Below, piece by piece: positions 265 through 38,977 of a DNA stretch of 38,977 nucleotides. The DNA comes from a virus. A program made the position numbers and the translations under genes. The first letter of the stretch is position 1; each line of letters begins with the position of its first letter. The DNA is taken from the IMG/VR virus record IMGVR_UViG_3300045988_170240; one strand, written 5' to 3'. The notes beneath the pieces were generated by a model that saw only the letters and a list, made by a program, of their open reading frames with translations, ran no database searches and was not told the DNA's origin.

Positions 265-710
265 ATTTCCGATAAAAGTGTATATAAAAATTAAAGACAA
301 TCATTTCAACCATTTAATTTTTTCCCCTTGAGGTTAATAATTTCAGGTACTTATCTCAGAGTGAAAATCGAAGTAAATTTCCAATAGGGTATAAGTACTT
401 GAAATATATGAGGATTCGCGGAATATCGATTTTAGCGGCACTCTCCCCAAAAACCTTTATATATATACTCCTTTAGAACTAATTTTTACTAGGTTATTAA
501 TTTATTTTTATTACTTTATCACTTTATTACTTTATAATAATAAAATAATATAATAAATATAAGGGTTTACGTGGTGCCCAAATGAAAGTGCGGAGGCCTA
601 AGCGATTTTTCGCGACACTTTAGTATTTTTGCCCTCCGTTCTGCCAATATTTTGCCGAGAGTTTTTCTGAAAGAGCAGATCCGCGAGTCCCCGAATCCTG
701 AGTATAAAAG

Positions 711-759: not shown

Positions 760-1056
760 TTAAGAAGCAGCTTCCCAAATGAACTTCTTGCCAAGCGGGT
801 CAGTGGCAATCATGATGCCCGCCTTCTTGAGATAGGACAAATTGGAACTAATGACCGCGGGCGACGTGTTGCAGGTCTCAGCAAGTTCCTTGATGCTCAT
901 ATGAGTGCCATTGGCGAGGGCTGCCTGAATCTTGTTCTTAATAGAATCAGGATTGTTGAACTTCTGCTGATACGTCTGTACCGCGAGAACCAAGTCTTCA
1001 TGAGAGAGGGCATTGAGGGCTTCGAGCGACAGATTGTTGAGTTCGTTGATGGTCAT
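760..1056 (-). CDS. Winged-helix/HTH DNA-binding regulator (98 aa) transcribed toward the left genome end
   Basis: ORF with AGGAG 7 nt upstream of the ATG; segment MSIKELAETCNTSPAVISSNLSYLKKAGI resembles an HTH recognition region. Confidence 0.6.
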   Translation of the reverse strand: MTINELNNLSLEALNALSHEDLVLAVQTYQQKFNNPDSIKNKIQAALANGTHMSIKELAETCNTSPAVISSNLSYLKKAGIMIATDPLGKKFIWEAAS

Positions 1057-1973: not shown

Positions 1974-2180
1974 ATGAATAATGAAATATTGGATAGTTTG
2001 AGAAGAATTAGTTGTGGTATGGAAATTGTTATGAGAGATGTAATAGAAGAAAAGTATAATATGGATAGAGATTATATTGAGATAGAAGATTGGGAATTGG
2101 AATTAGAGGAAATTATTGGTAAGGGTGTAGTAGAAGGTTGGAAGGAAATAAATAGAGTTATAGAAAAGATGGAGAAGTAA
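1974..2180 (+). CDS. Small hyper-acidic early protein (68 aa, 19 D/E against 10 K/R), C-free coding sequence; candidate DNA-mimic / anti-restriction (Ocr-like) protein
   Basis: RBS AAGGGAGG 9 nt upstream; protein contains no A, H, P, Q or T because the coding strand has zero cytosines. Confidence 0.6.
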   Translation: MNNEILDSLRRISCGMEIVMRDVIEEKYNMDRDYIEIEDWELELEEIIGKGVVEGWKEINRVIEKMEK

Positions 2181-2181
2181 A

Positions 2182-2418
2182 ATGAATGTTAATGAATTGA
2201 TGTATGATTTGGAAGAATGTAAGTTGGAAGTTGAGAGTGTATTGTGGGAGATAGTTTGTGATAATAGAGGTGTAGAGAGTGTGGAAGATTTGGATGATAG
2301 ATTGTTATTGGTAGAGTGTATGGATGATTTTTATGGAGGTGATAATTGGGAGTTGTTTAAGTGGTGGATGGAGTTAGAGGAAGTGTTTATGTGGTTGTAT
2401 GATTTAAGTAATGAGTAG
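2182..2418 (+). CDS. Second small hyper-acidic early protein (78 aa, 23 D/E against 4 K/R, 5 Trp), C-free coding sequence; candidate DNA mimic / anti-defence protein
   Basis: Start ATG lies 1 nt after the TAA of the upstream gene, with a GGAG RBS; same restricted 15-letter amino-acid alphabet. Confidence 0.6.
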   Translation: MNVNELMYDLEECKLEVESVLWEIVCDNRGVESVEDLDDRLLLVECMDDFYGGDNWELFKWWMELEEVFMWLYDLSNE

Positions 2419-2423
2419 GAATG

Positions 2424-2464
2424 TGATAGAGGAACTTATAATGGTTCCTCTATCATTTTCTTTC
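2424..2464 (+). terminator. Intrinsic terminator of the early transcript: 12-bp perfect stem, loop containing TATAAT, then TTTTCTTTC
   Basis: tgatagaggaac-ttataatg-gttcctctatca-ttttctttc, immediately after the stop at 2418. Confidence 0.6.
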
Positions 2465-2606
2465 AATCGGCTGGCAACGCCAGATCCGACGAGTAATACT
2501 ATTATTCTTAATGGGGTATTAGGGAACAACGTGACCGTCCCATTAAGAATAATAGTGTTATGAGGAGGATAGATTGAAAGAAAATGATAGAGGAACCATT
2601 ATAATG
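2424..2606. repeat. Nested inverted-repeat element: 33-bp perfect IR arms (2436-2468 / 2572-2604) around a 103-bp core that has its own 18-bp perfect IR (2498-2515 / 2539-2556) and a small hairpin ctggcaacgccag (2471-2483)
   Basis: Arms verified base by base; the right arm is followed by a second tgatagaggaaccattataatg copy. Confidence 0.8.
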
Positions 2607-2720
2607 CACATGATATGAGAAATACCTAAATACTTTGCTGCTTAGGTATGAATTATGTCATAAAGAAATGTTTTTCTAGAAAAATTGGGGGCCCCGGGGG
2701 CAAGGACGCGGAGAAAAAGT

Positions 2721-2995
2721 AGTTCTTAGGTCATCCCGCATTATATTTGTCTCTTTTTCCTATTTCTCTACAACATTTGTTGATAATTCCTTATACGTGC
2801 GCGTCATGCGAAGAATCCTCATAACACATGAGTTCTATGCACAGAACTCGAGTTCTATAGAAAAAGCATGAGGGGCCTTGGTATTTTATCATTTCCACAT
2901 TTTTCTCTATAGAACTCACCCCTCATGCCAATTTCACCTCTATAGAACTACTGAGTTCTAAAGCTCCGAGTTCCGTAACTCAGGGCTTTAGAACT
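2721..2995. promoter_or_regulatory. Cluster of at least 8 copies of the AGTTCT/AGAACT motif, including the perfect palindrome half-site GAGTTCTATAG, upstream of the late operon
   Basis: AGTTCT at 2721, 2831, 2851, 2954; AGAACT at 2843, 2911, 2944, 2990; also IR catgagggg / cccctcatg (2867-2875 / 2919-2927). Confidence 0.6.
2767..2783. promoter_or_regulatory. 17-bp motif CTCTACAACATTTGTTG, repeated identically at 32627-32643; contains the inverted repeat caaca-tt-tgttg
   Basis: Exact 17-mer found twice in the genome, both in intergenic leaders. Confidence 0.5.
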
Positions 2996-3013
2996 AATGA
3001 GTTTAGAGACGTG

Positions 3014-3042
3014 GCCAAAATTCTTGTGTACATTTCCCAAAA
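3014..3042 (+). promoter_or_regulatory. Candidate late-operon promoter (-35 TTGTGT, 17-bp spacer, -10 TGATAT; weak -10, possibly activator-dependent)
   Basis: Positioned between the motif cluster and the RBS AAGGAG (3064-3069) of the first late gene. Confidence 0.3.
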
Positions 3043-3075
3043 TACTTGATATGGTACTTGTGTAAGGAGAAAATC

Positions 3076-3543
3076 ATGGATATTTCGACCCGGTGTGACA
3101 ATATGCAGCAGCAAGTTAGGTTGCTGTATGAGATATTCGGCTTTGAGGCGGATGAAATCGCCCCATTTGTCGGTCTCGCGCCCACCATGGTCAAAATGAT
3201 GATAGCTGATGGGCAGTACATAAAGGCCCCGACTAAATTTTCCAGTTTTTCGAAGAACGCAGACGACGCAAGGGACCAACTGATTGAAGTGATAATGCGT
3301 AAACAGATGGCCTTTGCGCCTATTTACGCACAAACTGAACTCATTCTTCTGCAAAAAGTAGCTGAATTAGCATCAAATATGGATGCAGATGACCCCAATG
3401 CGGCTCGAAAGCTCGACCTTCTTGCAAAAACTACGGCTACCCTCAATCAGGCAACTGTTGCGGCCATTTTGTCACAAGTGTCACAGAACAAATCTAATGA
3501 TAGTGGGATGAAGATAGAAGTAGTCAATACATTTTCAAACTAG
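3076..3543 (+). CDS. Putative terminase small subunit / DNA-binding protein (156 aa from ATG 3076; the ORF-track start at 3046 is a TTG)
   Basis: Sits directly upstream of the large terminase; RBS AAGGAG 7 nt upstream; N-terminal helix-rich region. Confidence 0.45.
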   Translation: MDISTRCDNMQQQVRLLYEIFGFEADEIAPFVGLAPTMVKMMIADGQYIKAPTKFSSFSKNADDARDQLIEVIMRKQMAFAPIYAQTELILLQKVAELASNMDADDPNAARKLDLLAKTTATLNQATVAAILSQVSQNKSNDSGMKIEVVNTFSN

Positions 3544-3554
3544 GGACCTTCGTC

Positions 3555-4871
3555 ATGGCCATAGCCCCAAAAGTCATAACCATACCACGCAATTTCACAC
3601 CGCGCGATTACCAAATTCCTCTGTACAATTGCCTGGCAGAAGGATATAAGCGTGGGTTGGCTGTGTGGCATCGACGGGCTGGCAAAGATAAAGTGTTTGT
3701 TAACATCCTGGCCAGAGAGTCGATCAAACGCGTTGGAACCTATTTTTATATTCTTCCGTATTATAAACAGGCGCGCGCGATCATCTGGGAAGGGATGGAC
3801 AAAACAGGGTTTCGTCTGATAGAGCATATCCCTAAAGAGTTGTGGGTTCGCAAGGACAATCAGCAGATGACCTTAGAACTCGCCAATGGCTCATTTATTA
3901 GATTCCTTGGGTCAGACAATATCGATTCCATTGTGGGTACGAACCCCGTGGGCGTCATATTTTCAGAGTTTTCGTTGCATAAGCCTGAGGCTTGGCACTA
4001 CCTAAGGCCAATCCTGCTAGAAAACGATGGGTGGGCCTTGTTTAATGGGACGCCTCGGGGTCATAACCATCAGTGGGAAATGGACCTGTACGCACGTACC
4101 TCCGACGACTGGTTTTACTCCAAAGCGACCATAGATGACACCCATGTGATGACAGAGGAGCAGGTGCAAGAGGAAATTGATGCAGGTCTTCCTCCGGCCC
4201 TAGCAAAGCAAGAATTTTATTGCTCATATGAGGCTGCATTGGTTGGTGCATATTACGGTGAGCGCATGGAGGCCATCTCGTCACACATACTCCCTACCAT
4301 TTCATGGGAGCCCAATCTCTTGGTCAATACTGCATGGGACCTGGGCATTGATGACGAGTTAGTCATATGGCTGTATCAGAAGGTGCATAATGAAATCAGA
4401 ATCCTTGATTGTATCCATGATAATGGACATGCTCTGGATTACTATGTGCGTCTGCTCAATCAACGTCCATATGCCTATGGATACCATATCCTCCCTCATG
4501 ACGTTGAAGTCAGAGAGTTATCTTCTGGTCGCAGTCGCAAGCAGACACTGATGGACCTGGGACTCCAAGACATACGTGTCAATAAGCGCATACCTGTGGA
4601 AGATGGGATCAATATGGCCCGTAATATACTCCCCAGGTGTTGGTTTAGTGAAGATAAATGCTCAAAAGGCATTGAAGCCTTGAAGGGCTATCGTGCACAA
4701 TATGACTCGAAAACGAAGACATATGGGGCGCCAGTCCATGATTGGATGTCACATTATGCGGATGCGTTTAGAATGATGGCGCAGCACGAGCGTTACCAAG
4801 AGTTTGCAACACGCACTCTGCCACAACGCACACGAGATTATGACTATAATCCGTTGACATATGGAGAATAA
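3555..4871 (+). CDS. terL: Terminase large subunit (438 aa)
   Basis: Position upstream of the portal gene; P-loop-like VWHRRAGKDKV near the N-terminus; C-terminal RNaseH-like nuclease Asp motif AWDLGIDDELV. Confidence 0.7.
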   Translation: MAIAPKVITIPRNFTPRDYQIPLYNCLAEGYKRGLAVWHRRAGKDKVFVNILARESIKRVGTYFYILPYYKQARAIIWEGMDKTGFRLIEHIPKELWVRKDNQQMTLELANGSFIRFLGSDNIDSIVGTNPVGVIFSEFSLHKPEAWHYLRPILLENDGWALFNGTPRGHNHQWEMDLYARTSDDWFYSKATIDDTHVMTEEQVQEEIDAGLPPALAKQEFYCSYEAALVGAYYGERMEAISSHILPTISWEPNLLVNTAWDLGIDDELVIWLYQKVHNEIRILDCIHDNGHALDYYVRLLNQRPYAYGYHILPHDVEVRELSSGRSRKQTLMDLGLQDIRVNKRIPVEDGINMARNILPRCWFSEDKCSKGIEALKGYRAQYDSKTKTYGAPVHDWMSHYADAFRMMAQHERYQEFATRTLPQRTRDYDYNPLTYGE

Positions 4872-5121
4872 CATGGGCGGTACAGTCAAGAAAGTTTTTG
4901 GTGGCGGATCTTCCAAGCCTGATACGAGCGCGTATGAGGCCCAGCTTGAGGAGCAGCGCAAGGCGACGGAGGCTGCTGAGGCCAAGGCTGCAGCAGCTGA
5001 TGCACGTGCTAGAGACCAGCAGCAGCGGTTACAGCAGGGCAGAGCGACCACCATTTTCACCAGTGGTGAGGGCGACACAAACATCAAGACGAAGAAACCC
5101 ACTCTGGGTTCTGGGATGTAG
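4861..5121 (+). CDS. Small Ala/Gln-rich protein (86 aa) ending in ...TIFTSGEGDTNIKTKKPTLGSGM
   Basis: ORF between terL and portal; its C-terminal about 22 aa is paralogous to the C-terminus of the next gene. Confidence 0.5.
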   Translation: MENNMGGTVKKVFGGGSSKPDTSAYEAQLEEQRKATEAAEAKAAAADARARDQQQRLQQGRATTIFTSGEGDTNIKTKKPTLGSGM

Positions 5122-5123
5122 TT

Positions 5124-5525
5124 ATGGCATCGCCCGTTGATATTGCGTCTATCTTCAAACGCAAGGGACAGACTCCGACTCCTGAGACTCAGACACCGAG
5201 TCAGGGGTCGTCTATCATCAGATCATTCTTTGTTCGTGAGGGCGGGACTGAGGCTACTCCTGCGCCACAGCGACCCAATCCTGTGTTGAGCTATTTTGAT
5301 CCGGTGGCGTACTCTCAGCAGCGGGCGGCGTACAACAAGTCACAGGGCATTGAAGAAACTGCGCCTAAGGCAGAAGTCAAAGAACTGACTGAAGAAGAAA
5401 AGCGTAATGCTGAGCAACGCAATAAGAACAAGGCATTTGCCTCTGGACGTCCGGCGACTATTTTTAGTCAACCTGAGTCGTCCAATATCAAGATCAAGAA
5501 GCCTACGTTAGGCTCTGGGAGCTAA
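5124..5525 (+). CDS. Small Pro/Thr/Glu-rich protein (133 aa) ending in ...TIFSQPESSNIKIKKPTLGSGS
   Basis: ORF; shares the C-terminal motif TIF...NIK(T/I)KKPTLGSG with the upstream gene. Confidence 0.5.
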   Translation: MASPVDIASIFKRKGQTPTPETQTPSQGSSIIRSFFVREGGTEATPAPQRPNPVLSYFDPVAYSQQRAAYNKSQGIEETAPKAEVKELTEEEKRNAEQRNKNKAFASGRPATIFSQPESSNIKIKKPTLGSGS

Positions 5526-5528
5526 TTC

Positions 5529-7199
5529 ATGACAGTAGGTCGTTCCACAGAGGCCTCTCAGCGAGAGCGGGATGAAGTCAAGCGTATCATTAAGCGCTTA
5601 GACCAGCTCAAGTCTGATAGGGCGAATTTTGAAGCTCACTGGCAAAAAATTGCCAAAGTAGTGATGCCTTTTGATATGTCCTTTCTCTCGCAGTATCAGA
5701 CTGAGGGAGTGGACACTGACCCTCGTGTGTACGACTCGACTGGTATTCACTCCAATGAGCTGTTGGCATCAGGCTTTTATTCTTTGTTGACAAACCCTGC
5801 ATCGCCCTGGTTTGACCTGAGTGTAGCCAATCAGAAACTGGCAAATAACTCGGCAGTCAAAAGATGGTTGGCAGATGTAACGCGCATCATGGCCTATGAA
5901 ATTCAGCGTCCTCAGTCGGGCTTTACTACTTCTCTTCATGAAGGGTATCGCTCATATGGCGCGTATGGCAACATGTGCATGTTTGTCACAGAGAAAAAGG
6001 ACCTGACTGGGCTTCAAATCAATTCTCTGCCTCTCTCTGAATGCTATTTTGCAGAGAACGCTGAGGGGCAGATAGGATCGCTCTACCGAGTATACAGACG
6101 CACCGTCCTTCAATTGGTCGAGGCGTTCGATAAGGCTAACCTGCATCCGGAGATCGTTAAGGCGTATGATGATGGGGAACTGAGCACCAAGTTTGAGATC
6201 CTCCATGTGGTGGCTCCGAACATTGAAGCAGACCCCCTCAGCATCAAAGCAGCCAAGGCCATGCCTTACAAATCCACGTATGTGGACACGAAGCATGGAC
6301 TTGTCATTCAGGAATCGGGATACAATGAACGTCCTTTCATGGCAGCAAGATTCTATAAAGCATCACATGAGACGTATGGTCGTGGCCCAGGTTCCAATGC
6401 TCTTCCCGATCTCCGGATGCTGCAGCAGATAGTTTCGACTAATCTGCGTGCGGCACAGAAAATGATTGATCCGGCTCTTATGATTCCGGACCAGGGTTTT
6501 GTGTCACCCATCTCGACCAAGCCTGCGGCGATTAACTATTATCGTACCGGCTCCATGGATCCTAAGGGCGTAGTTTCTATGCAAACAGGTGGACGCCCTG
6601 ATCTTGGTCTTGATATCATTAAAGACCTTCAGATGCGCATTCGGGAAATCTTCTTTGTGGACCAGCTTCAGCTGAACACAGGACCCCAGATGACGGCTAC
6701 TGAGGTTATGCAGAGAACTGAAGAGAAGCTTCGTCTTATGGGCCCGGTTGTGGGCCGTGCTGAGAATGAGCTTCTCTCGCCTCTGATCATTCGGTGTTTT
6801 GGTATTCTTATGAGAGCAGGCAAATTTGATACTCCTCCTGAGGAGTTGATGCAGCCTGGTGTGAAACTGCAGATTGTGTATACATCGCCCATTGCAAAAG
6901 CTCAGCAACAGGTTGAGGCTAATAACCTTACCAGAGCTATGCAAGTTCTTACTCCGTTCCTGTCATTTGATCCTGCCGCAATGGATAAGTTCAATACTGA
7001 CAAGACTGTGGAAGGCGTGTGCGATATGTATTCAATCAATCCTGAATACTTGCGAGATGATTCTGAAACTGCAGAAGTCCGGCAAGCTAGAGCAGAAGCT
7101 CAGCAGCAGGCTCAAATGGCAGAGCAAATCAAGAACGCAGGTATCGGTATGAATAACATCGCCTCGGGTATGGATACCTTAGGCCAGATGGAGCAGTAA
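5529..7199 (+). CDS. Portal (head-tail connector) protein (556 aa)
   Basis: Size and position between terminase and scaffold/capsid; Gln-rich C-terminus. Confidence 0.6.
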   Translation: MTVGRSTEASQRERDEVKRIIKRLDQLKSDRANFEAHWQKIAKVVMPFDMSFLSQYQTEGVDTDPRVYDSTGIHSNELLASGFYSLLTNPASPWFDLSVANQKLANNSAVKRWLADVTRIMAYEIQRPQSGFTTSLHEGYRSYGAYGNMCMFVTEKKDLTGLQINSLPLSECYFAENAEGQIGSLYRVYRRTVLQLVEAFDKANLHPEIVKAYDDGELSTKFEILHVVAPNIEADPLSIKAAKAMPYKSTYVDTKHGLVIQESGYNERPFMAARFYKASHETYGRGPGSNALPDLRMLQQIVSTNLRAAQKMIDPALMIPDQGFVSPISTKPAAINYYRTGSMDPKGVVSMQTGGRPDLGLDIIKDLQMRIREIFFVDQLQLNTGPQMTATEVMQRTEEKLRLMGPVVGRAENELLSPLIIRCFGILMRAGKFDTPPEELMQPGVKLQIVYTSPIAKAQQQVEANNLTRAMQVLTPFLSFDPAAMDKFNTDKTVEGVCDMYSINPEYLRDDSETAEVRQARAEAQQQAQMAEQIKNAGIGMNNIASGMDTLGQMEQ

Positions 7200-10263: not shown

Positions 10264-12066
10264 ATGCAGGACGCAATTCCAATTCAAGTATCATTCGCTT
10301 CCGGCGAACTTAGCCCACGGATGCATAATCGCATTGACGTGGATGCTTATTTTGCCGGTGCTGCTGAGATGCGTAACCTGATTGCACTCCCGCATGGACC
10401 AATGACTCGTAGGATGGGTTCACGATTCGTCATCAATTGTAAGAGTGAGAAAGTTAAACTCATTCCATTTAAATTTAGTACCAATCAATCGTTCATTCTT
10501 GAATTCGGTAAGACTGCGAATACTGGTTATGGTGGATATATGCGTGTCCATTATAACGGTGGTACAGTTGTAAATGACAATGGATCTATTTACGAACTGC
10601 CAACCTATTTTATTGATGATGCATGGTATGACCAGGTAACCTGGGCACAGTCCGGCGACGTATTGTGGTTGTGTTATTACAACTATTCACCCCAGCGCCT
10701 CATTCGTAAGGCAAATAATAACTGGGAATTGGATACTCCTATTGCTCATACGTCAGACAATGACCCAGTTCCGCCACAGTGGCAGAATTTTAACTGGCCA
10801 AGAGTTGTTGCGTATCATGAACAGCGTTTGGTCATGGGAAGTACTCCTGCACAACCATTGACATTGTGGTTTTCTGAGATCGGGGATACTACCCGATTCT
10901 ATCGTAATCGGGCTTCCTCTGACCCGGTTCTTGATACTGACCCGATGAACTATACCATGGCCACTGATATGGCAGATGGTATTAAATGGTTGCACTCTAC
11001 TGACGTACTTTTGTGCGGAACTGGTAGTGCAGAATACCGTATTGCGCCATCATCCTTGGGTGAAGCTCTTACACCGAGTAATATCAAGATTACAAAGCAG
11101 ACCAATTATGGTTCTATGGCTGCACAAGCTGTCCAATTGGGCTCATCTGTATTGTTCATTCAAAACAGTCGAGATCGTGTGCGTTCTCTTGATTACTCGG
11201 TTCTTGATAACCAGTTTGCAGCCACAGATTTGACTATCTTTGCAGACCACATTCTTAAAGGCAAAGTCAAAGATGTGGCATATATGAGCGCGCCAGACAC
11301 GTATTTGTGGTGTATTACTGATACTAATCAGTTGATTGGCATGACATATGAAAAGCAACAGAAAGTACTTGCTTGGCATGCCCATTCATTCGAAGCTCAG
11401 ACCCAATCTGGATATGAGAATGTCGAACTGAAGAGTATTAGTTGTATCCCTGGTCCTAATGGCGACCAACTATGGCTTGTTATTAAAAGAGGAAATCGTA
11501 CATCTACGATTGAGTATATTGACAAGATTGTTAATGAGTCACCAAATTTGAGTGTTGAGTCTTTTGCTGATGGTCAGGCAGTATATCAAGGTACTGCTAC
11601 TTCAACCATTACTGGTCTCAATCATTTAGAAGGACTTAAAGTTGCTCCTCTTATTAATGGATGGGTCCATCCTGAAGTGTATGTACAAAATGGCGCAATT
11701 ACGCTTAATCAAGCAGTAACTAACTGTGTCATTGGTGTTCCATATACTTCACGGTTTAAGTCTATGGTTATTCAGGCATCTGACCAGGTATCTACAGGAG
11801 CATCGAGAAAGATTGTTAGTGCTACATTCTCTTTGCTGAATTCTCTGGGATTGAGATTCGGCATTGAGGGCCAAAGCATGCAAGAGAAGTTCTTTGGCCC
11901 GACCAAAATTATGAATAAGGCACAGCAGTTGTTTACAGGAGATTTTACTGAGTCTGTAGCGTCTTCTAACAATGAAACGCAACAGCTCGTAATTGAACAC
12001 AAGACACCCTATCCTCTCATGGTTAGGGCCATTGTGTATCATATCAATCCGAGGCGGGTTAACTAA
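10264..12066 (+). CDS. Tail tubular protein B-like / tail protein (600 aa)
   Basis: Large ORF in the gp12 position. Confidence 0.4.
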   Translation: MQDAIPIQVSFASGELSPRMHNRIDVDAYFAGAAEMRNLIALPHGPMTRRMGSRFVINCKSEKVKLIPFKFSTNQSFILEFGKTANTGYGGYMRVHYNGGTVVNDNGSIYELPTYFIDDAWYDQVTWAQSGDVLWLCYYNYSPQRLIRKANNNWELDTPIAHTSDNDPVPPQWQNFNWPRVVAYHEQRLVMGSTPAQPLTLWFSEIGDTTRFYRNRASSDPVLDTDPMNYTMATDMADGIKWLHSTDVLLCGTGSAEYRIAPSSLGEALTPSNIKITKQTNYGSMAAQAVQLGSSVLFIQNSRDRVRSLDYSVLDNQFAATDLTIFADHILKGKVKDVAYMSAPDTYLWCITDTNQLIGMTYEKQQKVLAWHAHSFEAQTQSGYENVELKSISCIPGPNGDQLWLVIKRGNRTSTIEYIDKIVNESPNLSVESFADGQAVYQGTATSTITGLNHLEGLKVAPLINGWVHPEVYVQNGAITLNQAVTNCVIGVPYTSRFKSMVIQASDQVSTGASRKIVSATFSLLNSLGLRFGIEGQSMQEKFFGPTKIMNKAQQLFTGDFTESVASSNNETQQLVIEHKTPYPLMVRAIVYHINPRRVN

Positions 12067-12506
12067 TGAAGCCGATTTTCCGGGAAGTAAATCTGGCACA
12101 TCACATTGGTAGAGCGATTCATTTGATTGATGCGCACTGCCAAGAGGTAGTTGGACAGGGTAAGAAGTATAATCCAGACATTGATTATCTCTGTATGGGG
12201 TCAAATACTGGGTTACTGCATACGTTTGATATTGAGGACAATGACAAGGTAGTAGGATATGCGGTTTTTATGATCGCAAAAGATTTTATTACCAGTGAAC
12301 GGTCGGCGTCTAATGTGGCCATTTATGTGTCACCTGAATATAGAGGGCGTACAGCAGTTAGGTTTATGCAGTACACTGAAATGATGCTTTTGTCCAAGGG
12401 TATTAAGCAAATAAATTTTCATGTACCTCCGAGTTCTATGGCAGAAAAGTGCCTCGCTCATTTAGGGTACAATCTTCGTGAGAAGGTTTACTACAAAGAG
12501 TTCTAA
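12066..12506 (+). CDS. GNAT-family N-acetyltransferase (146 aa) in the internal-virion-protein (gp13-like) position
   Basis: GNAT motif-A-like YRGRTAVRF preceded by beta-strand VVGYAVFMIAKD and followed by an NFHV segment typical of the GNAT fold. Confidence 0.5.
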   Translation: MKPIFREVNLAHHIGRAIHLIDAHCQEVVGQGKKYNPDIDYLCMGSNTGLLHTFDIEDNDKVVGYAVFMIAKDFITSERSASNVAIYVSPEYRGRTAVRFMQYTEMMLLSKGIKQINFHVPPSSMAEKCLAHLGYNLREKVYYKEF

Positions 12507-12525
12507 AGCTCATTGGGAGTAGAAT

Positions 12526-24111: not shown

Positions 24112-25333
24112 GAATTATTATATGGTCGACTAGCACCGGTTTGGTTTGTCCAGGCCGGCGCAGTCGACCATTTAATTGTTGATAGGTTTCGAGGGACCAA
24201 GTAAGTCCAAGCCAGCATATGCGGTGACCGCCATACTGTAGATTAAGGCCGTGGGATAATGAATTGGGGTGACAGAAAAGTACAGGGAGATTTCCTTTGT
24301 TCCATTCATGAACGTACTGCTTAGACAATTCGGTAGGAGTGCCCCCAATAATAGCTGGCGCCTCTGGAAGTCTCTTTCTAATTTCGATAAGTTCACTTCT
24401 AAACTGAATGGGAACGAGCATGGGATCGCCAGCTGCTTCCTCAATTCGGTCAAAGAGGGTATCCACTTTTGCGGTATTATCGAATATAATGTTACGCTGC
24501 TCGTCATAGATAGAACCTTGTAAGAGCTGGCGTAACCGTAATGAGAGTATTCCAGCAGTAGCTGCCGTAAGAGTACTTTCATTTGCAAGAGTCGTAATAA
24601 ATTCTGTCTGAAACTCTTTATATCGTTGCATGGACGCTGGAGGGAGATATGCGGGAATAGATGAAAAGATGTATGGTTCAAGTTTAAGATAGTCATTTGC
24701 ATCCAACCTGAAAGTTATATCTTTAATTTTATCAATCACAATATCCATTGCACCGTCGTTCTCAATCCATATGAATCTATCAATTTGAATATGATAGGTC
24801 ATCATGAATTGAGTTTTCTTTTTTCCAAGGCGCTCTCCATCATCCAAAAGAAAATACTGCGACCACAAATCTCGTACGCCATTTGGTGCGGGAGTTCCTG
24901 ATAGGGCATATGCGCGTTTAAAAAGTCGTTTAAACTCTTTCATGAGTTTGAAGCGTTTAGAACTAGAATCCTTGAGCTTTGTCATTTCATCCCAGATAAT
25001 CATGCCATCACGCATATAATTGGTCATTTCAATGGTCCAAGCCTTGCTCAACCAGTTGATACCATCATAATTTATGATATACACATCAAGACCTGGTTGC
25101 AAGTATCTTGTCTTTCCATGAAGTACTTGATACTTAAGATCAGGTCGCCATTTAGCTATTTCTTCAGGCCACGTAATAGCGGCTACAGTAAGAGGTGCAA
25201 ATATGATTGTGGGACGATCAATCATATGAAGTAGAATTGCGGTCTTTCCCATGCTCATATCGACAGCAAAATATCCTACATCATGGCTATTGCCCCATTC
25301 TACAGCCTTTTTCTGATAATCACGAAGTTCCAT
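24002..25333 (-). CDS. SNF2-family DNA-dependent ATPase/helicase (about 443 aa from ATG 25333; ORF-track start 25399 is a TTG)
   Basis: Motifs DYQ, Walker A DMSMGKT, DEMT (motif II), SGTPAPN (motif III), QLNGRLRRPGQ (motif VI). Confidence 0.75.
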   Translation of the reverse strand: MELRDYQKKAVEWGNSHDVGYFAVDMSMGKTAILLHMIDRPTIIFAPLTVAAITWPEEIAKWRPDLKYQVLHGKTRYLQPGLDVYIINYDGINWLSKAWTIEMTNYMRDGMIIWDEMTKLKDSSSKRFKLMKEFKRLFKRAYALSGTPAPNGVRDLWSQYFLLDDGERLGKKKTQFMMTYHIQIDRFIWIENDGAMDIVIDKIKDITFRLDANDYLKLEPYIFSSIPAYLPPASMQRYKEFQTEFITTLANESTLTAATAGILSLRLRQLLQGSIYDEQRNIIFDNTAKVDTLFDRIEEAAGDPMLVPIQFRSELIEIRKRLPEAPAIIGGTPTELSKQYVHEWNKGNLPVLFCHPNSLSHGLNLQYGGHRICWLGLTWSLETYQQLNGRLRRPGQTKPVLVDHIIIPKTVDDRVLSTLTRKDTTQQQLLNALKEFANESGYL

Positions 25334-25363
25334 AGTGCTTAACTCATTGGTATATATGACAAA

Positions 25364-25450
25364 CTCTATAGAACTCTTCTCAATTTTCACGCGATACAAT
25401 ATTCACGCTTTTCATTTTAAAGAGTTCTATAGAGTTCTATAATTAGTTCA
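25364..25450. promoter_or_regulatory. Second cluster of the AGTTCTATAG-family motif (ctctatagaactc 25364-25376; tandem agagttctat x2 then aattagttca at 25421-25450) between the 118-aa gene and the SNF2 helicase
   Basis: Read directly; same motif family as 2721-2995 and 471-483. Confidence 0.55.
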
Positions 25451-25455
25451 ATAGG

Positions 25456-25812
25456 CTAATCCGAGGATTTTTCGATTCCCAATGCTGTATCAGGTAAAAA
25501 GAGGAAGCAATTTTCAGGACTGAAAGGAAACCGAATATCTTTCCGTCGTAAACGCAATGACAGAACTGGGTATCGCATGATATTGGCTTGAGTCTTCCAC
25601 CAATCAATAAATGACTGGGGCTCGTCCAACCATTTATCACATATCAGATTCTTTTCTGCTAGAGTATATTTGCAGATAAGAGCACGCAAACGCTGTGCAA
25701 GAGCATAAGCTACAGTACTCTTATTGAAAGAATTGCATATCTTACGTGCCTTAGTCACGCGTTCAAGATATTCACCATACCGCTCTTCTTGAATCTTCTT
25801 ATTCGATCTCAT
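25456..25812 (-). CDS. Hypothetical protein (118 aa)
   Basis: ORF with RBS AAGGAGG lying inside the end of the ligase gene. Confidence 0.5.
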   Translation of the reverse strand: MRSNKKIQEERYGEYLERVTKARKICNSFNKSTVAYALAQRLRALICKYTLAEKNLICDKWLDEPQSFIDWWKTQANIMRYPVLSLRLRRKDIRFPFSPENCFLFLPDTALGIEKSSD

Positions 25813-25823
25813 GATATACCTCC

Positions 25824-26993
25824 TTATTTATCAATTCGAATTGTCTTAAGGCGAGGATGACGCATGCTGCCAGCTGGTGTGATTTCTTGGCACGCTACTT
25901 CAACAGTTTGTCCAATAATTTCAGAACGATCTTGGAAAAAAATCGTGCGCTGTGCGTCAGACAACCCGCTACCGACACGAACAGGGACGCCATGAAAGTC
26001 AATAATAACGCCACCAGCCATGCCAGCGTATTTTCCAGTACCTTCAAACACGTCGATAACTTTACAGTCATAGGTGTCCTCGTTTTTGATTTTCATCCAT
26101 GCATGAGAGCGCTTACCAATATAGGTAGCGTCCGGCCATTTTACCATTGCTCCTTCATACCCATCAGATCTGAATTGATTATACAGGTTGAATGCGCCAT
26201 TTTCCGTATTTACCATATAATGAGGCACTAGTTTAATATTACTCGTTTCCTTTACACAGTCAAGAAGAATACCAAGACGGTTATGTAAGGACTCGTCATG
26301 AAAATCAGGTGTATCGAAGACGTTAAACACCACTTCATCAGTCTGAGCAAATGACCGAATATCACCACTCGAATCCTGGAAAGATTTACCAGGTATAAGC
26401 AGCTCACCATCAAGTCTGAAAGAATATTTTTTCAATTCACTCATTACACGGTCAAGGCCTTTCAATTCAAAGCCCTTACGTGACCTGATAGTAGGAGTTT
26501 CACCTGGCATATACATGGCACGCAGGCCATCGAGTTTAGGACTGACATAACAAGGCCAACTAGCCTTTTTCGGGTCGTAAAGGTGAGCGAGAGCGATGGG
26601 AAATTCAGGAACAGTATCAGGTAAGGCGCGATTAATGAGAGTGGCGCCCATTCCAAGACGAAGATCTTTTTCCACCATGCCAGCCAAAAGAAGAGCCGAT
26701 TCATGGGTGAGTGTATTCATATGGTCATAAAAAGCTTTCTTCGCTTCGCGACCTCCTGACTGCCTAAGGCCATTCAAGACTTTGTTGGTATCGGCAGAGA
26801 ATTCATGAAGGCCCAAACCAGAGAAGTTCGACCAATTGACCTTGTTGATATTAAAATGGATGAAGGGCGAATAGGTAGTACGCAAAACCTTTCGCAACTC
26901 AGGATGCTTGCGGAGAAAATCTACTTTAGCGTTGGTGCCACGAGTATTACGCAGTATCCTGAGAGTGTTATACATGTCGTTGGATGAAGTCAT
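25824..26993 (-). CDS. ATP-dependent DNA ligase (389 aa)
   Basis: Adenylation motif KxDG in SPKLDGLRAMY; size typical of phage ATP-dependent ligases. Confidence 0.8.
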   Translation of the reverse strand: MTSSNDMYNTLRILRNTRGTNAKVDFLRKHPELRKVLRTTYSPFIHFNINKVNWSNFSGLGLHEFSADTNKVLNGLRQSGGREAKKAFYDHMNTLTHESALLLAGMVEKDLRLGMGATLINRALPDTVPEFPIALAHLYDPKKASWPCYVSPKLDGLRAMYMPGETPTIRSRKGFELKGLDRVMSELKKYSFRLDGELLIPGKSFQDSSGDIRSFAQTDEVVFNVFDTPDFHDESLHNRLGILLDCVKETSNIKLVPHYMVNTENGAFNLYNQFRSDGYEGAMVKWPDATYIGKRSHAWMKIKNEDTYDCKVIDVFEGTGKYAGMAGGVIIDFHGVPVRVGSGLSDAQRTIFFQDRSEIIGQTVEVACQEITPAGSMRHPRLKTIRIDK

Positions 26994-30549: not shown

Positions 30550-30942
30550 TTAGCGAGTTTTGCTATAGCCAAGTTTGATGCGCTCATAATTGATGTGCAT
30601 CTTTCTCTTGAACACATCCTCAACTTGCTCCCACGACAGCGAGTTGTTTTCCATAAATGCGCCCAAGAAGAAAAGTATATCAACCACCTCTTCCGCCATA
30701 TTGTCCATATTGTAGGACTTATAGCCCAACGGACGCCAAGGCTTCCAAGGGGTAGATTCTTGCAGTTCGGTCACTTCATTATGAAGCGCCGCAATCAGTT
30801 GATTGTTCATATCGCGCCGGTCAATAGCAGACCGTACAGTAGAGTTCTGATCTTCCTTGGCAATCGGATAACCAAGGATCTCATGATACTCTTTAATCAT
30901 CGCGAACATATTTGCCGCAGTGAGAGACTTTTCAGTTTCCAT
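30550..30942 (-). CDS. MazG-like nucleotide pyrophosphohydrolase (about 130 aa from the internal ATG)
   Basis: All-alpha NTP-PPase-like acidic motifs HNEVTELQE and EEVVDILFFLGAF. Confidence 0.45.
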   Translation of the reverse strand: METEKSLTAANMFAMIKEYHEILGYPIAKEDQNSTVRSAIDRRDMNNQLIAALHNEVTELQESTPWKPWRPLGYKSYNMDNMAEEVVDILFFLGAFMENNSLSWEQVEDVFKRKMHINYERIKLGYSKTR

Positions 30943-31369
30943 AGCTAAGCCCCATATGTATCCATGTATCTTCAGGCCGTACACGTGACCACAAACCATG
31001 ACCGGTTTTGTTATGATTGGTCTCATTCACGAACAGCACTTTAGTACATCCAGCATTTATAAGTGCCGCAGTACATTGGATACATGGTTCGAGTGTGCAA
31101 TATGCCACAAAAGGTACATTGCTTGACCGCTGAATGAGGGCGTTTATTTCGGCGTGCACAGCATAGCAAGGCAGGCCGTCATTCTTAACACAACAATTCT
31201 CATCGCAGCAGTTGAACACGCCTTTGGGATTGCCGTTGTAGCCTGTAGACAGAATATTGCCTGTCTTCTCGTCTACCAGCACGCATCCGACCTGCTTGTC
31301 AATACAAGTAGACCGCTGCGCGACTGCCGTAGCTACTTGGATATAATACTGGTGACGGGAGATCCGCAT
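30932..31369 (-). CDS. dCMP deaminase (145 aa from ATG 31369)
   Basis: Zinc-binding motifs HAEINAL and PCIQCTAALINAG (CDA fold H(A/C)E ... PCxxC). Confidence 0.8.
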   Translation of the reverse strand: MRISRHQYYIQVATAVAQRSTCIDKQVGCVLVDEKTGNILSTGYNGNPKGVFNCCDENCCVKNDGLPCYAVHAEINALIQRSSNVPFVAYCTLEPCIQCTAALINAGCTKVLFVNETNHNKTGHGLWSRVRPEDTWIHMGLSYGN

Positions 31370-32001
31370 GACATCTTTCCCTGGTTGCAGCGGCCATTGT
31401 GCATAAAGCAGTATGGCCCGATCATTGAGAACAGTTCGGGAAACCAGTCGCAGCACATAGAGTGCATAGCCGCGGCCAACATCTGCATTTCCTGAACGTT
31501 GCGGTGACAAAGCCGGAGCTGCAAGAAGTTAATGAGTGAGCGTGCGTTCATGGTCACAACCACATTGACGCCGGCGCTCATGGGAAGCAGCATACGAGCT
31601 TCTTCTTTTGCTTCACCATCCTGCATAAGAAGAGCATACGCGTTTACAGCTTCAGCATGCGCCTTTTGTATGCGTTCATCATTGACCATATAAGGATGCA
31701 CAAAGCAGTCATAGGACGTATAATCCTGATAATGCTGACTGCTGGACGTGTAAGATGCAATACGATGCCGCACATGCTGATCAAAGCAAGCCCGAGATAC
31801 GTCGGTAATGCGGAAGCAAATGACCGCGTGTTCCACAGGATTGAGATGATCAGCCGAGATCAAGAACGATAATAGAGCACTCGGATTTCCCTTGATCTCG
31901 GGGTTCTTCTTCATCGTTTGCTGGGCAGCCAGGGCAACCACATTTGCAGGATACGGGGTCGACCATATTACTTGGGCTTTCGGGGCATACGGCTTCAGCA
32001 T
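31333..32001 (-). CDS. thyX: FAD-dependent thymidylate synthase ThyX (222 aa from ATG 32001, RBS AAGGAG)
   Basis: ThyX signature RHRIASYTSSS (RHR-x7-S). Confidence 0.8.
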   Translation of the reverse strand: MLKPYAPKAQVIWSTPYPANVVALAAQQTMKKNPEIKGNPSALLSFLISADHLNPVEHAVICFRITDVSRACFDQHVRHRIASYTSSSQHYQDYTSYDCFVHPYMVNDERIQKAHAEAVNAYALLMQDGEAKEEARMLLPMSAGVNVVVTMNARSLINFLQLRLCHRNVQEMQMLAAAMHSMCCDWFPELFSMIGPYCFMHNGRCNQGKMSCGSPVTSIISK

Positions 32002-32617
32002 TTTCGTATTCTCCTTCGATTGTGTGATAAACAGGATGATAGACCCGCAGGCCATGAAAACGTGGTGATTTCACGTAATTATCGCCGTAATTGCATGCTT
32101 TACACATGCGCCCTTTAGGACGAGAAGACCATTCGCAGGTATCACAGCCCTTAATTACAAACTGTTCTACCGCATGGTCATAAGGATATCCACAATCTTT
32201 GACTACAAAGTTGTTGTCACCCTCATCATTGTTCTTGTAGTATGTACATGCAACGCACTTGTTATTGGTAACAAGATTGTTGCTCAGTGCACTATATACA
32301 CAATTTTTGCACCCCATTTCGACAGACTTTGCACTATCATTTTTGGGATTACACGCGAACCAATGCAGAAACATAGCATTAGCTGCAATATGAGCAAGGT
32401 GAGACTGACCCGATTCAGGATCATTCATCTCACCGCGCTCGAAGGCATTCAGATGACGATGCAGAGCATCAAGATAGCGCCGATGTGCGTTATCTGTAGT
32501 TTTCCAGTCCTCAGGCCCGTATTTTTCCGCGCCCATGGTAAGAACCTTTGCTAGCTCAAGAGCAAACTTAGGTTCAATAAGCGAGAAAAGGGGCTTTCCA
32601 GAATCAAATTTCGACAT
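31850..32617 (-). CDS. dATP/dGTP pyrophosphohydrolase-like N-terminal domain fused to a Cys-rich (putative Zn-binding) C-terminal domain (255 aa)
   Basis: N-terminal KPLFSLIEPKFALELAKVLTMGAEKYGPEDWK...HLAHIAANAMFLHWF; C-terminal multiple CxxC pairs; the 3' 150 nt overlap thyX in another frame. Confidence 0.4.
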   Translation of the reverse strand: MSKFDSGKPLFSLIEPKFALELAKVLTMGAEKYGPEDWKTTDNAHRRYLDALHRHLNAFERGEMNDPESGQSHLAHIAANAMFLHWFACNPKNDSAKSVEMGCKNCVYSALSNNLVTNNKCVACTYYKNNDEGDNNFVVKDCGYPYDHAVEQFVIKGCDTCEWSSRPKGRMCKACNYGDNYVKSPRFHGLRVYHPVYHTIEGEYENAEAVCPESPSNMVDPVSCKCGCPGCPANDEEEPRDQGKSECSIIVLDLG

Positions 32618-38858: not shown

Positions 38859-38977
38859 CTTTTTTTTTATTTAAGTATTTCAACCCTTTATCGGGCGCTC
38901 AGTTAATTCAGGTAGTTACGGAGAATACAATAATTTCAGGTATTTAAAAATGCTTAGTTAAATCAGGTGCTTTGGAC
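38859..38977. repeat. Right direct terminal repeat, identical to 1-119
   Basis: Exact match to the window start. Confidence 0.85.

Follow-up and report, generated by a model that had tools for sequence, protein, structure and literature searches.

A short, orientation-free repeat in an uncultured podovirus, clustered before the structural operon and two further transcription units

Several phages that depend on the host RNA polymerase have late-gene activators that act upstream of terS, such as RinA and ArpU in phages of Gram-positive bacteria, C in Mu and Ogr in P2, each with no more than one or two sites, at about -35 to -55. Another arrangement is that of Escherichia coli gal (OE and OI) and lac (O1 and O3), where repression proceeds by looping between operators that bracket the promoter. 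In the early-to-late switch region of Bacillus phage phi29, p4 (with p6) is a small DNA-binding protein with several intergenic control sites, which bends or bridges the DNA and times the host RNA polymerase (PMC3100819, PMC1904284). The p4 site reads AACTTTTT-15 bp-AAAATGTT (PMC1904284).

The genome studied here is that of an uncultured, circular podovirus of about 38.86 kb. It was analyzed as a stretch of 38,977 nucleotides, hereafter the window, whose ends overlap (38859-38977 are identical to 1-119). The lineage is frequent in metagenomes, with dozens of 37-40-kb contigs, and has no cultured relative: the nearest cultured matches of TerL, portal and polymerase, podoviruses for the closest, are 31-44% identical, and megablast of positions 2000-6000 against cultured phages gave no match. 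The portal is a head-tail connector as in T7-like podoviruses, and relatives match Pfam Head-tail_con. In this genome a short word, TATAGAACTC, is crowded in both orientations before the structural-gene operon and two other transcription units.

The proposed system resembles that of phi29 in that a small phage protein would occupy several intergenic sites and time promoters, as far as can be judged from sequence. However, the p4 site is unrelated to TATAGAACTC and absent from 2700-3075, no p4 or p6 homologue was found, no Pfam, PHROG or NCBIfam match of a small ORF points to p4, and the present sites lie at three or four loci with a fixed distance of ~66 bp and are not similarly arranged between divergent early and late promoters. 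As in gal and lac, they flank a promoter-like box at a constrained distance and in free orientation, and an oligomerizing helix-turn-helix (HTH) binder is plausible, but a loop of ~66 bp would be very short, the promoters are placed by prediction and the protein family is unrelated. With the late activators, the proposal shares a dedicated phage factor for the packaging, structural and lysis operon and sites just upstream of terS. The difference is that the sites form arrays of at least ten, and searches for RinA, ArpU, Ogr and Mor/C domains gave no match.

We described the word by a 13-mer position weight matrix (PWM), TCTATAGAACTCn, trained on 12 of the sites. Over the whole window it gives 17 matches of at least 12 bits for 1.4 expected; six are not among the training sites, against the same expectation of 1.4. 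The matches group in four places: 2719-3008 (hub A), 25365-25455 (hub B), the pair at 12430 and 12497 (hub D) and 470-482. Eleven of the 17 fall in non-coding DNA, which represents 9.6% of the genome (binomial P = 5e-8). The hexamer AGTTCT/AGAACT occurs 41 times in the window (18.9 +/- 4.3 in shuffles), with a density of 3.2 per kb outside genes and 0.83 per kb within them, and exact TATAGAACT is found there only at 2851, 2908, 2941, 25367, 25423 and 25433. A sequence-only reading of the window had reported at least eight AGTTCT/AGAACT copies within 2721-2995 (eight are there), a 13-mer (CTTTAGAACTAAT) identical at 471-483 and 2986-2998, and a recurrence of the family near 25364-25450; all three were found again, the last as PWM sites at 25365-25455. 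It had also proposed a whole-genome PWM search for intergenic confinement, and a uniform spread through coding sequence was not seen.

On the other hand, that reading took a palindrome as the unit of the motif. The full 14-bp palindrome AGTTCTATAGAACT has no copy in the window, where the closest matches carry two mismatches, and the unit is an asymmetric site of ~11 bp, (C)T(A/T)TAGAACT(C/A). Hexamers form dyads with N2, N4 or N6 between them as well as 10-bp direct tandems. A dimeric-repressor operator, with inverted half-sites at one fixed spacing, was thus rejected: the palindrome is absent, the spacings vary and direct tandems are present. The second cluster had been placed at a replication/lysis boundary, whereas it separates a 118-aa gene from that of the SNF2 helicase within the leftward operon. 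The copy assigned to the left end is a real site, but since the window ends overlap this end is the non-coding region upstream of the replication operon. The pair at 12430-12442 and 12497-12509 comes in addition to the sites listed by that reading.

The elements of hub A are as follows.

2719-2731, minus strand: outlying weak site ACCTAAGAACTAC, with AGTTCT at 2721-2726 (11.1 bits).
2771-2782, no strand assigned: a second, different conserved palindrome, CAACATTTGTTG, within CTACAACATTTGTTGAT at 2767-2784.
2829-2861, no strand assigned: distal triple site GAGTTCTATGCAC / CACAGAACTC / GAGTTCTATAGA, which includes the palindrome AGAACTCGAGTTCT at 2843-2856.
2873-2891, plus strand: conserved box GGGCCTTGGTATTTTATC, a candidate extended -10 (TG at 2879-2880, TATTTT at 2882-2887) between the distal and proximal sites.
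2906-2918, plus strand: proximal site TCTATAGAACTCA, the top PWM match (20.2 bits).
2939-3008, no strand assigned: imperfect palindrome of ~60 bp with six sites, at 2939-2951 (plus), 2952-2964 (minus), 2966-2972 (GAGTTCC), 2976-2982 (GTAACTC, which is AGAACTC in most relatives), 2985-2997 (plus) and 2998-3008 (weak, GAGTTTAGAG).
3027-3055, plus strand: candidate late promoter (TGTACA at 3027-3032, 17-nt spacer, TGaTATGGT at 3047-3055).

Near-identical relatives (L001-L006) vary too little for footprinting, but in relatives down to 56-61% protein identity the hexamers are retained while the flanks have diverged. L300 has seven hexamers within 150 bp ahead of terS, and they align with those of the window. 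The three hexamers of the distal triple all stand in conserved columns of L301, L306 and L300, and this triple-site module is also found upstream of SNF2 in L131, L133 and L134. In the column of the proximal site, which lies 60 and 68 bp from distal sites, the hexamer of L300 is reversed to AGTTCT. The outlying weak site is present in L301 and L306 and lost in L300. The mismatches between the arms of the 60-bp palindrome fall in the spacers and never in the hexamers (window, L301 and L306), and this unit occurs as a 46-bp tandem duplication in L005/L120. The CAACATTTGTTG block is invariant in the window, L300, L301 and L306 and duplicated in L301; upstream of terS, the distant relative L310 has the related CTACAACATTTGACGAT and two ATCrTCAAATGATGAT palindromes.

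The box at 2873-2891, conserved in L301, L306, L300 and the B3 module of hub B (see below) and present as GAGGCCTTGTAGAATTACC in B5, may function as a promoter. The element at 3027-3055 has the TGn, the A at position 2 and the T at position 6 that define a sigma70 extended -10 promoter on a sequence criterion. Its predicted start is near 3062, at the distance of about 7 nt from the hexamer that such a promoter requires, followed by a Shine-Dalgarno sequence (AAGGAG, 3064-3069) and the ATG of terS at 3076, and its counterparts are TGtTATGGT in L301, TGaTATGGT in L306 and TTTACT-17-TGgTATATT in L300. The promoter before terS would be of a conserved, sub-optimal extended -10 type. Sigma70-consensus promoters were found for small early genes only, and none for the replication or late operon.

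The sites outside hub A, with one such early promoter, are listed below.

470-482, plus strand: isolated site CCTTTAGAACTAA (15.7 bits), the weakest member.
1935 to 1906, minus strand: sigma70-like early promoter of the 98-aa gene.
12430-12442, minus strand: hub D distal site (plus strand GAGTTCTATGGC), 16.4 bits, outside the training set, in the 3' end of gene 12066-12506.
12497-12509, minus strand: hub D proximal site (plus strand AGAGTTCTAAAGC), 17.1 bits, spanning the stop codon.
25365-25377, plus strand: hub B proximal site, 19.5 bits; the sense (minus) strand reads GAGTTCTATAGAG.
25421-25455, minus strand: hub B distal tandem sites TATTGAACTA ATTATAGAACTC TATAGAACTC (sense strand), of 19.5, 14.7 and 11.2 bits.

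Hub B has its proximal site 31 nt ahead of the SNF2 ATG at 25333 and a distal tandem with a period of 10-12 bp. Among relatives it exists in six sequence types (B1-B6), all of which have two distal sites and, 63-69 bp from them, a single proximal one, in free orientation; three sites are retained upstream of SNF2 in L304. The distal tandem is present in B1, B2, B5 and B6, whereas B3 and B4 have a palindrome in its place. The proximal site points one way in B1/B2 and the other way in B3-B6, although its distance to the start codon is similar, as expected for the site of a factor and not for a core promoter element.

In hub D, the proximal site lies 67 bp from the distal one and 17 nt ahead of the ATG at 12526. 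L300 has the same 67-bp spacing and an identical AAA GAG TTC TAA, and it retains the distal hexamer through synonymous serine codons. All six codons that the two sites cover are the same in the window and in L300, against 5 of 16 for the other conserved residues of the stretch (hypergeometric ~0.006). The comparison points to selection on the DNA within the gene. The isolated site at 470-482 adjoins an 85-bp, very A+T-rich, non-coding stretch (484-565) upstream of the replication operon; an AGAACT stands in the corresponding region of L304, and the hexamer has no counterpart in L305 and L306.

Altogether, in eight unit sequence types (six at hub B) and 12 instances, the distal and proximal sites are 63-69 bp apart for the outer pair and 53-61 bp for the inner one. 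The sites are non-random, largely intergenic, conserved against diverging flanks, constrained in spacing and free in orientation. Intergenic enrichment before genes together with conservation above the flanks is what characterizes an array of transcription factor binding sites, the binding itself being predicted. L008, whose TerL is 41% identical, has a single motif, in coding sequence, and fewer hexamers than expected, and relatives with 45% identical SNF2 proteins (L135-L139) have no AGAACT/AGTTCT hexamer upstream of SNF2. L308 (~35% identity) has the same layout upstream of terS with a different repeat, TATAyGGTCCACnGTTATA, in four copies; copies of it stand ~30 nt upstream of two of the three promoter-like boxes. 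A scan of IMG/VR for AGAACTYGAGTTCTAT gave 111 matches, of which those inspected beyond near-identical relatives were coding sequence. A full-text literature search for the motif listed matches that appeared unrelated to phage regulation.

We consider it reasonably probable that a winged-helix protein of the phage binds the repeats as double-stranded DNA, and that they are grouped in regulatory units before three transcription units. These units precede the operon that runs from terS through the structural genes to lysis (hub A), the SNF2 gene (hub B) and the distal part of the structural operon from 12526 (hub D); all three would be expressed apart from the early and replication genes. Each unit would comprise one to three distal sites, a proximal site ~66 bp downstream and, between them, a weak extended -10-type box. 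The extra sites of hub A would form a 60-bp symmetric array that ends ~60-70 bp upstream of the conserved extended -10 promoter before terS. The protein would oligomerize across the sites and might link distal with proximal ones, and its binding would set the time at which the host RNA polymerase uses the weak promoters of the late units. The sites would in this way control the early-to-late switch. Protein binding, the identity of the binder, the transcriptional effect and its sign are all what we infer from sequence. We lean to activation by a 161-aa protein encoded by a middle gene; however, with a promoter bracketed at about -45 and +20, repression by looping fits equally well, and a proximal site at about +20 would be unusual for an activator. 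The promoter assignments within the units are weak, the hexamers of B2 and B6 being poor and the TACAAT of hub D not being retained in L300. An operator set for a phage regulator at the entry of the late operon, which the sequence-only reading had put forward, is thus the best-supported explanation, the sites being intergenic, conserved and orientation-free and a distant relative having another repeat; its simple dimer on a 14-bp palindrome is not.

Two small proteins are the main candidates for the binder.

32769-33254, minus strand: the favored candidate, a 161-aa protein with a predicted winged helix and helical hairpin and an acidic tail, whose N-terminal 60 residues are nearly invariant in motif-bearing genomes.
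760-1056, minus strand: the second candidate, a 98-aa winged-helix protein with weak Pfam and NCBIfam winged-HTH matches.

The AF2 model of the 161-aa protein (pLDDT 83) has the H1-H2-H3-beta-hairpin topology of a winged helix, followed by a helical hairpin. Similarity to winged-helix regulators of the MarR/PadR/ArsR-like kind is weak, with Foldseek matches to PadR, MepR, ZitR, MntR, BirA and AspA (E = 0.08-0.5); in the fold search, the best E value (6e-3) went to an unrelated protein and the winged-helix matches were weak. About 40 full-length contigs carry the protein, and its family counts 143 clusters in public data, with sporadic Pfam matches among members. The recognition helices of both candidates are invariant across all motif-keeping genomes, and both differ in L308, which has the other repeat. 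In the 161-aa protein NKSRGTIFAQLRLMG becomes DKSLASIFAQLRLMG in L308, and DKSLASVFAQLRLMG in L307; in the 98-aa protein the whole clade has AVISSNLSYLKKAG, from which L308 departs. This covariation of repeat type and recognition helix is a single contrast between lineages ~35% identical, and since it applies to both candidates it does not identify the binder. The 161-aa protein would be the better candidate. The sequence-only reading had named these two and a third possible regulator, a 91-aa sigma-region-4-like protein (38504-38779). The first two are compatible with binding through their invariant helices, whereas the 91-aa protein, which matches a sigma model at no better than E = 0.04, has a variable HTH that speaks against it; of the candidates it is the one with the lowest conservation. 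Comparison of the three proteins with PDB sequences by phmmer gave no significant match.

The arrays provide a testable handle on the timing of structural genes in a phage without its own RNA polymerase. They also point to two small winged-helix proteins as candidate regulators, and the compact cis-element could mark late units in related genomes. As the most likely docking site of a phage-encoded winged-helix regulator, the element would be genuine, though of a rather common type. Such a mechanism is expected of a lytic phage, so that the gain lies in annotation and experimental design and not in a new principle. A bolder and unlikely version would make the sites docking points for the family of the 161-aa protein, so far uncharacterized, with a winged helix, a coiled coil and a conserved acidic tail; its members would clamp weak promoters between a distal double site and a proximal site ~66 bp away. 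A micro-loop or an extruded cruciform with 17-19-bp arms would then act as a replication- or copy-number-sensitive late switch, the whole forming a portable cassette. On this view the control regions of terS and SNF2 have exchanged the cassette, which has also travelled with an inserted HNH gene.

One would also wonder whether the motif belongs to the core promoter. Either TATAGA or TAGAAC would then be a non-canonical -10 used by the host RNA polymerase with a phage-encoded or phage-modified specificity factor, much as the late promoters of T4 are defined by TATAAATA alone. All six hub B types do have (T/C)(A/T)TAGA in the sense direction, at 31-36 nt from the SNF2 start codon that follows, and the palindromic core TCTATAGA would explain function in either orientation. 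In L310, a perfect TATAAT comes after the analogous T-rich context TTTTCTCT, at the place of TTTTTCTCTATAGA in the window, and no sigma70 consensus promoter was found for the replication and late operons. However, with at least ten copies in both directions inside 280 bp, one would expect numerous convergent and antisense starts. The T at -7 is missing from TATAGA, and many sites read TTTAGA, CTTAGA or CACAGA. In hub D, a transcript that starts 7 nt past the proximal site would lack the greater part of the Shine-Dalgarno sequence, and an ordinary conserved extended -10 promoter exists downstream of hub A. No sigma or RNA polymerase gene was detected in the genome, the 91-aa HTH protein being variable and scoring poorly against the sigma model. 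We thus hold this explanation to be rather improbable; TATAGA as a -10, also suggested by the sequence-only reading, is possible for promoter-proximal sites and fits the bidirectional arrays poorly. Two further promoter assignments were rejected. An ECF-type promoter, GAAC-N15/16-CGTG, fits only two sites and not the B3-B6 types, and AATAAT or TATATA just before the SNF2 Shine-Dalgarno sequence cannot be the -10 because the start of B5 would fall inside that sequence.

Another hypothesis lies in the structures that inverted copies can form. These copies would fold into hairpins of RNA or single-strand DNA (RNase III sites, terminators or attenuators, or cruciforms), with the shared word conserved at the foot of the stems. 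T7 mRNAs carry RNase III processing or stabilizing sites, and the head-tail connector is of the kind found in T7-like podoviruses. The hairpin potential is strong in hubs A and B1-B4 and leaves room for a structural role: the RNA of hub A reaches -68 kcal/mol (z = -8.1), that of B1 -40 kcal/mol (z = -7.9), and B3 has z = -4.3, while arms reach past the motif to a length of 16-19 bp, and both arms change together from A to B3 and from B1 to B2. In B3 and B1, however, a partial second copy of the motif (GAGTT) makes up much of this extra length, so that tandem sites explain it too. In addition, B5 consists of three direct sites without structure (z = -0.66), hub D of direct repeats (z = -1.7), and the hairpin of B6 is built from unrelated sequence. 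In the long palindrome, mismatches in the spacers with hexamers kept are the opposite of selection on a stem. No U-tract follows the motif stems (2851-2949, 2954-2995 and 25370-25440), and a scan for intrinsic terminators retained only 2830-2849 (minus strand) among the motif hairpins and none in 25200-25900. Searches for tRNAs and Rfam families found nothing. A conserved structured RNA was rejected in view of B5 and D, the spacer mismatches and the lack of an Rfam match, and hairpins as the basis of the conservation are in our opinion very unlikely. As motif hairpins are absent in some versions and mismatches fall in spacers, the element looks like protein-binding DNA and not RNA structure.

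The clusters could also be iterons of a replication origin, recognized by the 817-aa primase-helicase with its Prim-Pol, PriCT_2 and VapE/D5-like domains; a precedent is phage P4, which has short iterons at two loci, ori and crr, bound by its alpha protein. As with these type I iterons, the sites are short, bidirectional and present at distant loci, a P4-alpha-like primase-helicase is encoded at 36051-38504, and one site abuts the A+T-rich stretch at 484-565. This is very doubtful, though. The hubs stand directly before genes, at a constrained distance from start codons and promoter-like boxes, and one pair is inside a coding region. The region 1-565, with its own iterons (three 142-bp repeats) and an A+T-rich tract of 8-bp period, is more origin-like, and the site beside that tract is the one without counterpart in L305 and L306. 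GC skew tracks gene orientation only.

Hub A, whose multiple sites in both orientations recall lambda cosB or SPP1 pac, could be a packaging site (pac or cosB-like) bound by the small terminase, as the lambda R sites adjoin Nu1; terS starts 70 bp downstream and TerS has an N-terminal HTH-like segment, but the same sites occur upstream of SNF2 and in the tail-gene region, where they have no packaging role, and the putative recognition helix is APTMVKMMIADG in the window and SKAVVELMIEEG in L300 for the same motif, which makes this extremely unlikely. Hardly more credible is a host LexA box that couples late or SNF2 expression to the SOS response: the GAAC-N4-GTTC of AGAACTCGAGTTCT (core 2844-2855, kept in L301, L306, L300 as AGAACTACTGTTCT, and modules B3 and B4) matches the core of the Gram-positive Cheo consensus, CGAAC-N4-GTTCG, but it explains one dyad of ~17 sites, the other dyads having N6 or N8 core spacing and direct tandems being unfit, while B1, B2, B5 and B6 lack the palindrome and the distant relative has an unrelated repeat.

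A last resemblance came from a scan of IMG/VR for TATAGAACT-N10-40-TATAGAACT, in which the inspected matches listed were, besides near-identical relatives, coding or tandem repeats and ParA-associated arrays. The latter are CTATAGTTCTATAGA arrays upstream of parA in plasmid-like prophages (L016, L041, L046 and L111). They have nearly the same core word, in both orientations and clustered before a gene, but belong to a ParA/ParB-type partition operon, and neither ParA nor its 118-aa partner has a homologue in the window (best E = 0.29). The resemblance is most likely a convergence on an A/T-rich palindromic core.

The AGTTCT/AGAACT arrays of the window form a genuine cis-regulatory system, conserved in a clade of uncultured phages, and are best read as arrays of sites at which a phage winged-helix regulator would bind in front of late transcription units. 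Such a mechanism would be of a familiar kind. The p4 switch of phi29 follows a similar logic (PMC3100819, PMC1904284), although it has neither sites nor proteins in common with the system of the window.

Bases 1-119 are identical to bases 38859-38977; the ends of the window thus overlap, which makes it a circularly assembled phage genome of ~38,858 bp, with the following layout.

3076 (terS) to 24111 (end of the lysis genes), rightward: structural operon, with terL and T7-type portal and capsid genes in between
38779 to 24002, leftward: replication operon, beginning with the gene of a 91-aa HTH protein
760-1056, minus strand: 98-aa winged-helix gene, between the structural and replication operons
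near 1906-1950: two back-to-back sigma70-like promoters, inter-operon region
1974-2418: two small acidic proteins, inter-operon region

Besides the 91-aa HTH protein, the replication operon encodes a Prim-Pol/VapE primase-helicase, a DUF2800 nuclease, a MazZ-like/ThyX/dUTPase-like block, a Gp2.5/Enc34-type SSB, PolA, VRR-NUC, a ligase, a 118-aa protein and an SNF2 helicase. No cultured phage matched the window at the DNA level, and the best protein matches, at 31-44% identity, belong to uncultured phages and to podoviruses that infect diverse Gram-negative hosts. The nucleotide-metabolism block (30550-32617, minus strand) comprises a PF18909 dATP/dGTP diphosphohydrolase N-terminal domain (MazZ-like), ThyX and a dUTPase_2/MazG-like protein, to which relatives add a dCMP deaminase. 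It suggests that the nucleotide pool is altered or a base modified; a PurZ-like gene was not seen.

The hexamer occurs 41 times in the window versus 18.9 +/- 4.3 expected, with eight copies within 2721-2995. A weight matrix of 13 columns, trained on 12 sites, gave 17 matches of at least 12 bits versus 1.4 +/- 1.0 in Markov shuffles, and 11 of the 17 fall in non-coding DNA, which makes up 9.6% of the genome (P = 5e-8). All the sites listed by the sequence-only reading were found where it had placed them. The 14-bp palindrome that headed it is absent from the window, the motif unit being asymmetric, (C)T(A/T)TAGAACT(C/A), and the second cluster, which it had assigned to the replication/lysis boundary, lies between the 118-aa and SNF2 genes. 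It had also missed two sites, at 12430 and 12497, that score high and are not among the 12 used to train the matrix.

IMG/VR yielded no relatives beyond near-identical ones, and graded relatives (L-numbered contigs) were drawn from a larger protein collection.

TerS, identity to the window: L301-303, 88%; L300, 61%
Nuclease, identity to the window: L305, 82%; L306, 81%; L304, 56%; L307-L310, ~35%

L304 and L300 are one contig. The motif is kept in every genome down to 56-61% identity, and L300 has seven hexamers in the 150 bp before terS. When four genomes are aligned, the hexamers fall in conserved columns, with an inverted copy at one column, while most of the sequence between them differs. 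The intergenic region upstream of SNF2 (hub B, 25365-25455 in the window) has been replaced repeatedly: six sequence types, B1 to B6, were counted, and each of them combines a single proximal site with a distal double one, the latter being the palindrome AGAACTCGAGTTCT in some types and a 10-bp tandem in others. Over 12 instances of this unit in eight sequence types, a count that takes in units of hub A (2719-3008, before terS) and hub D (12430-12509) besides the hub-B types, the distal and proximal sites are 63-69 bp (outer) or 53-61 bp (inner) apart. The proximal site has one orientation in B1 and B2 and the opposite one in B3-B6.

The pair at 12430/12497 (hub D) sits in the final 25 codons of a gene, and L300 keeps it with a spacing again of 67 bp. 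The codons under the sites are identical in 6/6 cases between the window and L300, whereas the other conserved residues of the stretch use the same codon in 5/16 only. This codon identity is direct evidence of selection on the nucleotide sequence.

Among near-identical relatives, one (L005/L120) has the palindromic unit (window 2946-3003) duplicated in tandem (46 bp), and GTAACTC at 2976-2982 of the window is AGAACTC in most relatives, so that site number varies within the population. Two others have a small additional gene inserted after the motif module and before the SNF2 start (L132 5731-6003, L133 5716-6000); it shows the Cys and His motifs characteristic of HNH endonucleases and employs the Shine-Dalgarno region of the module.

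A possible reading of lower probability is that the copies act as hairpins. Where copies are inverted, the predicted folds are very stable (z = -8.1 for 2815-3010, -7.9 for B1, -4.3 for B3), with arms that reach past the motif. Against this, the three direct copies of B5 fold no better than shuffles (z = -0.66), the direct copies of hub D reach z = -1.7, and the hairpin of B6 consists of unrelated sequence. Moreover, in three genomes the arm mismatches of the 60-bp palindrome at 2940-3008 fall in spacers and leave the hexamers intact, and much of the added arm length in B1 and B3 comes from a partial second motif copy. A hairpin as primary function is thus disfavoured. No Rfam family matched, and no U-tracts follow the motif stems.

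Between the distal and proximal sites stands a conserved box, GGCCTTGGTATTTTATC in hub A and B3 and GGCCTTGTAGAATTACC in B5, whose sequence resembles a second extended -10; were it a promoter, the distal sites would be placed at about -40 to -50 and the proximal one at about +20. This promoter assignment is weak, because B2 and B6 have poor hexamers. Directly before terS, a conserved promoter of the extended -10 type is predicted (TGTACA-17-TGaTATGGT, 3027-3055), with a counterpart at the same place in L300 (TTTACT-17-TGgTATATT) and a predicted start ~60-70 bp downstream of the end of hub A. In the stretch that separates the upstream gene from the SNF2 start, B5 and B6 carry a hairpin of a separate kind, which in B6 precedes a U-rich run. 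If these hairpins terminate, SNF2 would form its own unit, controlled like the structural operon.

Concerning the regulator that would bind the arrays, the N-terminal winged helix of a 161-aa protein (32769-33254, minus strand), helix NKSRGTIFAQLRLMG included, is almost invariant in the motif-bearing clade, as is helix AVISSNLSYLKKAG of the 98-aa protein; the HTHs of the 91-aa protein and of TerS vary within it. Both winged-helix proteins are changed in these helices in L308, so this contrast does not separate them. We favour the 161-aa protein as predicted binder because its gene is a middle gene, whose product could turn on the late units; the 98-aa protein, expressed from an early sigma70-type promoter, would fit a repressor. 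The 161-aa model shows a winged helix, a long helical hairpin and an acidic tail (pLDDT 83), with only weak structural matches to PadR, MarR, DtxR, BirA and AspA winged helices; its family is unannotated (143 clusters).

Upstream of terS, L308 keeps the order of the window (terminator, giant palindrome, G/C box, repeat array, promoter-like boxes) with a different repeat, TATAyGGTCCACnGTTATA, in four copies; copies lie ~30 nt upstream of 2/3 CTTTGTCATATTTTTAC boxes. L310 has a further different repeat. Such turnover points to a phage-specific factor, since a change of this kind would be unexpected for a host factor. That the motif is itself a promoter element or a LexA box, the clusters origin iterons or hub A a pac site is possible, each at lower probability.

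A second element, CTACAACATTTGTTGAT (2767-2784, palindrome CAAC-ATTT-GTTG), shows no change in any of the close or 60% relatives and can still be recognised upstream of terS in the 35% relative L310, which additionally has two ATCrTCAAATGATGAT palindromes. It is conserved more deeply than the AGAACT motif, and a second factor, itself more conserved, may have its site there.

In unrelated plasmid-like prophages, CTATAGTTCTATAGA arrays with copies in both orientations immediately precede a gene for ParA (KGGVGKTT), after which comes a 118-aa protein.

L016 1450-1760: CTATAGTTCTATAGA array
L041 9750-10010: CTATAGTTCTATAGA array
L046 260-480: CTATAGTTCTATAGA array
L111 9470-9700: CTATAGTTCTATAGA array

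These are a centromere or operator array; they share no protein with the window system, although the core word is nearly the same.

Region 1-565 holds a repeat of up to 113 nt in three copies with a 142-bp period (13-125, 155-267, partial from ~290), then an 85-bp very A+T-rich tract with a TTTATYAC repeat of 8-bp period. No sigma70-like promoter was found there, although the replication operon must start in it; the region is a candidate for an origin, for a set of middle promoters, or for both. Between the leftward sigma70-like promoter (1935 to 1906) and the 98-aa gene, 1100-1970 has ~850 nt without credible ORF, of normal G+C, with a direct repeat GTGACTCCTGAATGCTCAATCAG at 1328 and 1367 and neither tRNA nor Rfam match; the stretch could represent either a non-coding RNA or a long leader. 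L307, L308 and L309 also have long ORF-free, repeat-rich stretches, between small early genes and the primase gene. Finally, the inter-operon region contains a nested palindrome of 186 nt (2419-2604; 33-nt arms 100% complementary, inner 22-nt arms 95%) that opens with a terminator-like hairpin (2423-2456). The giant palindromes of L308 and L310 at this position differ in sequence, so that it is the structure that is conserved.
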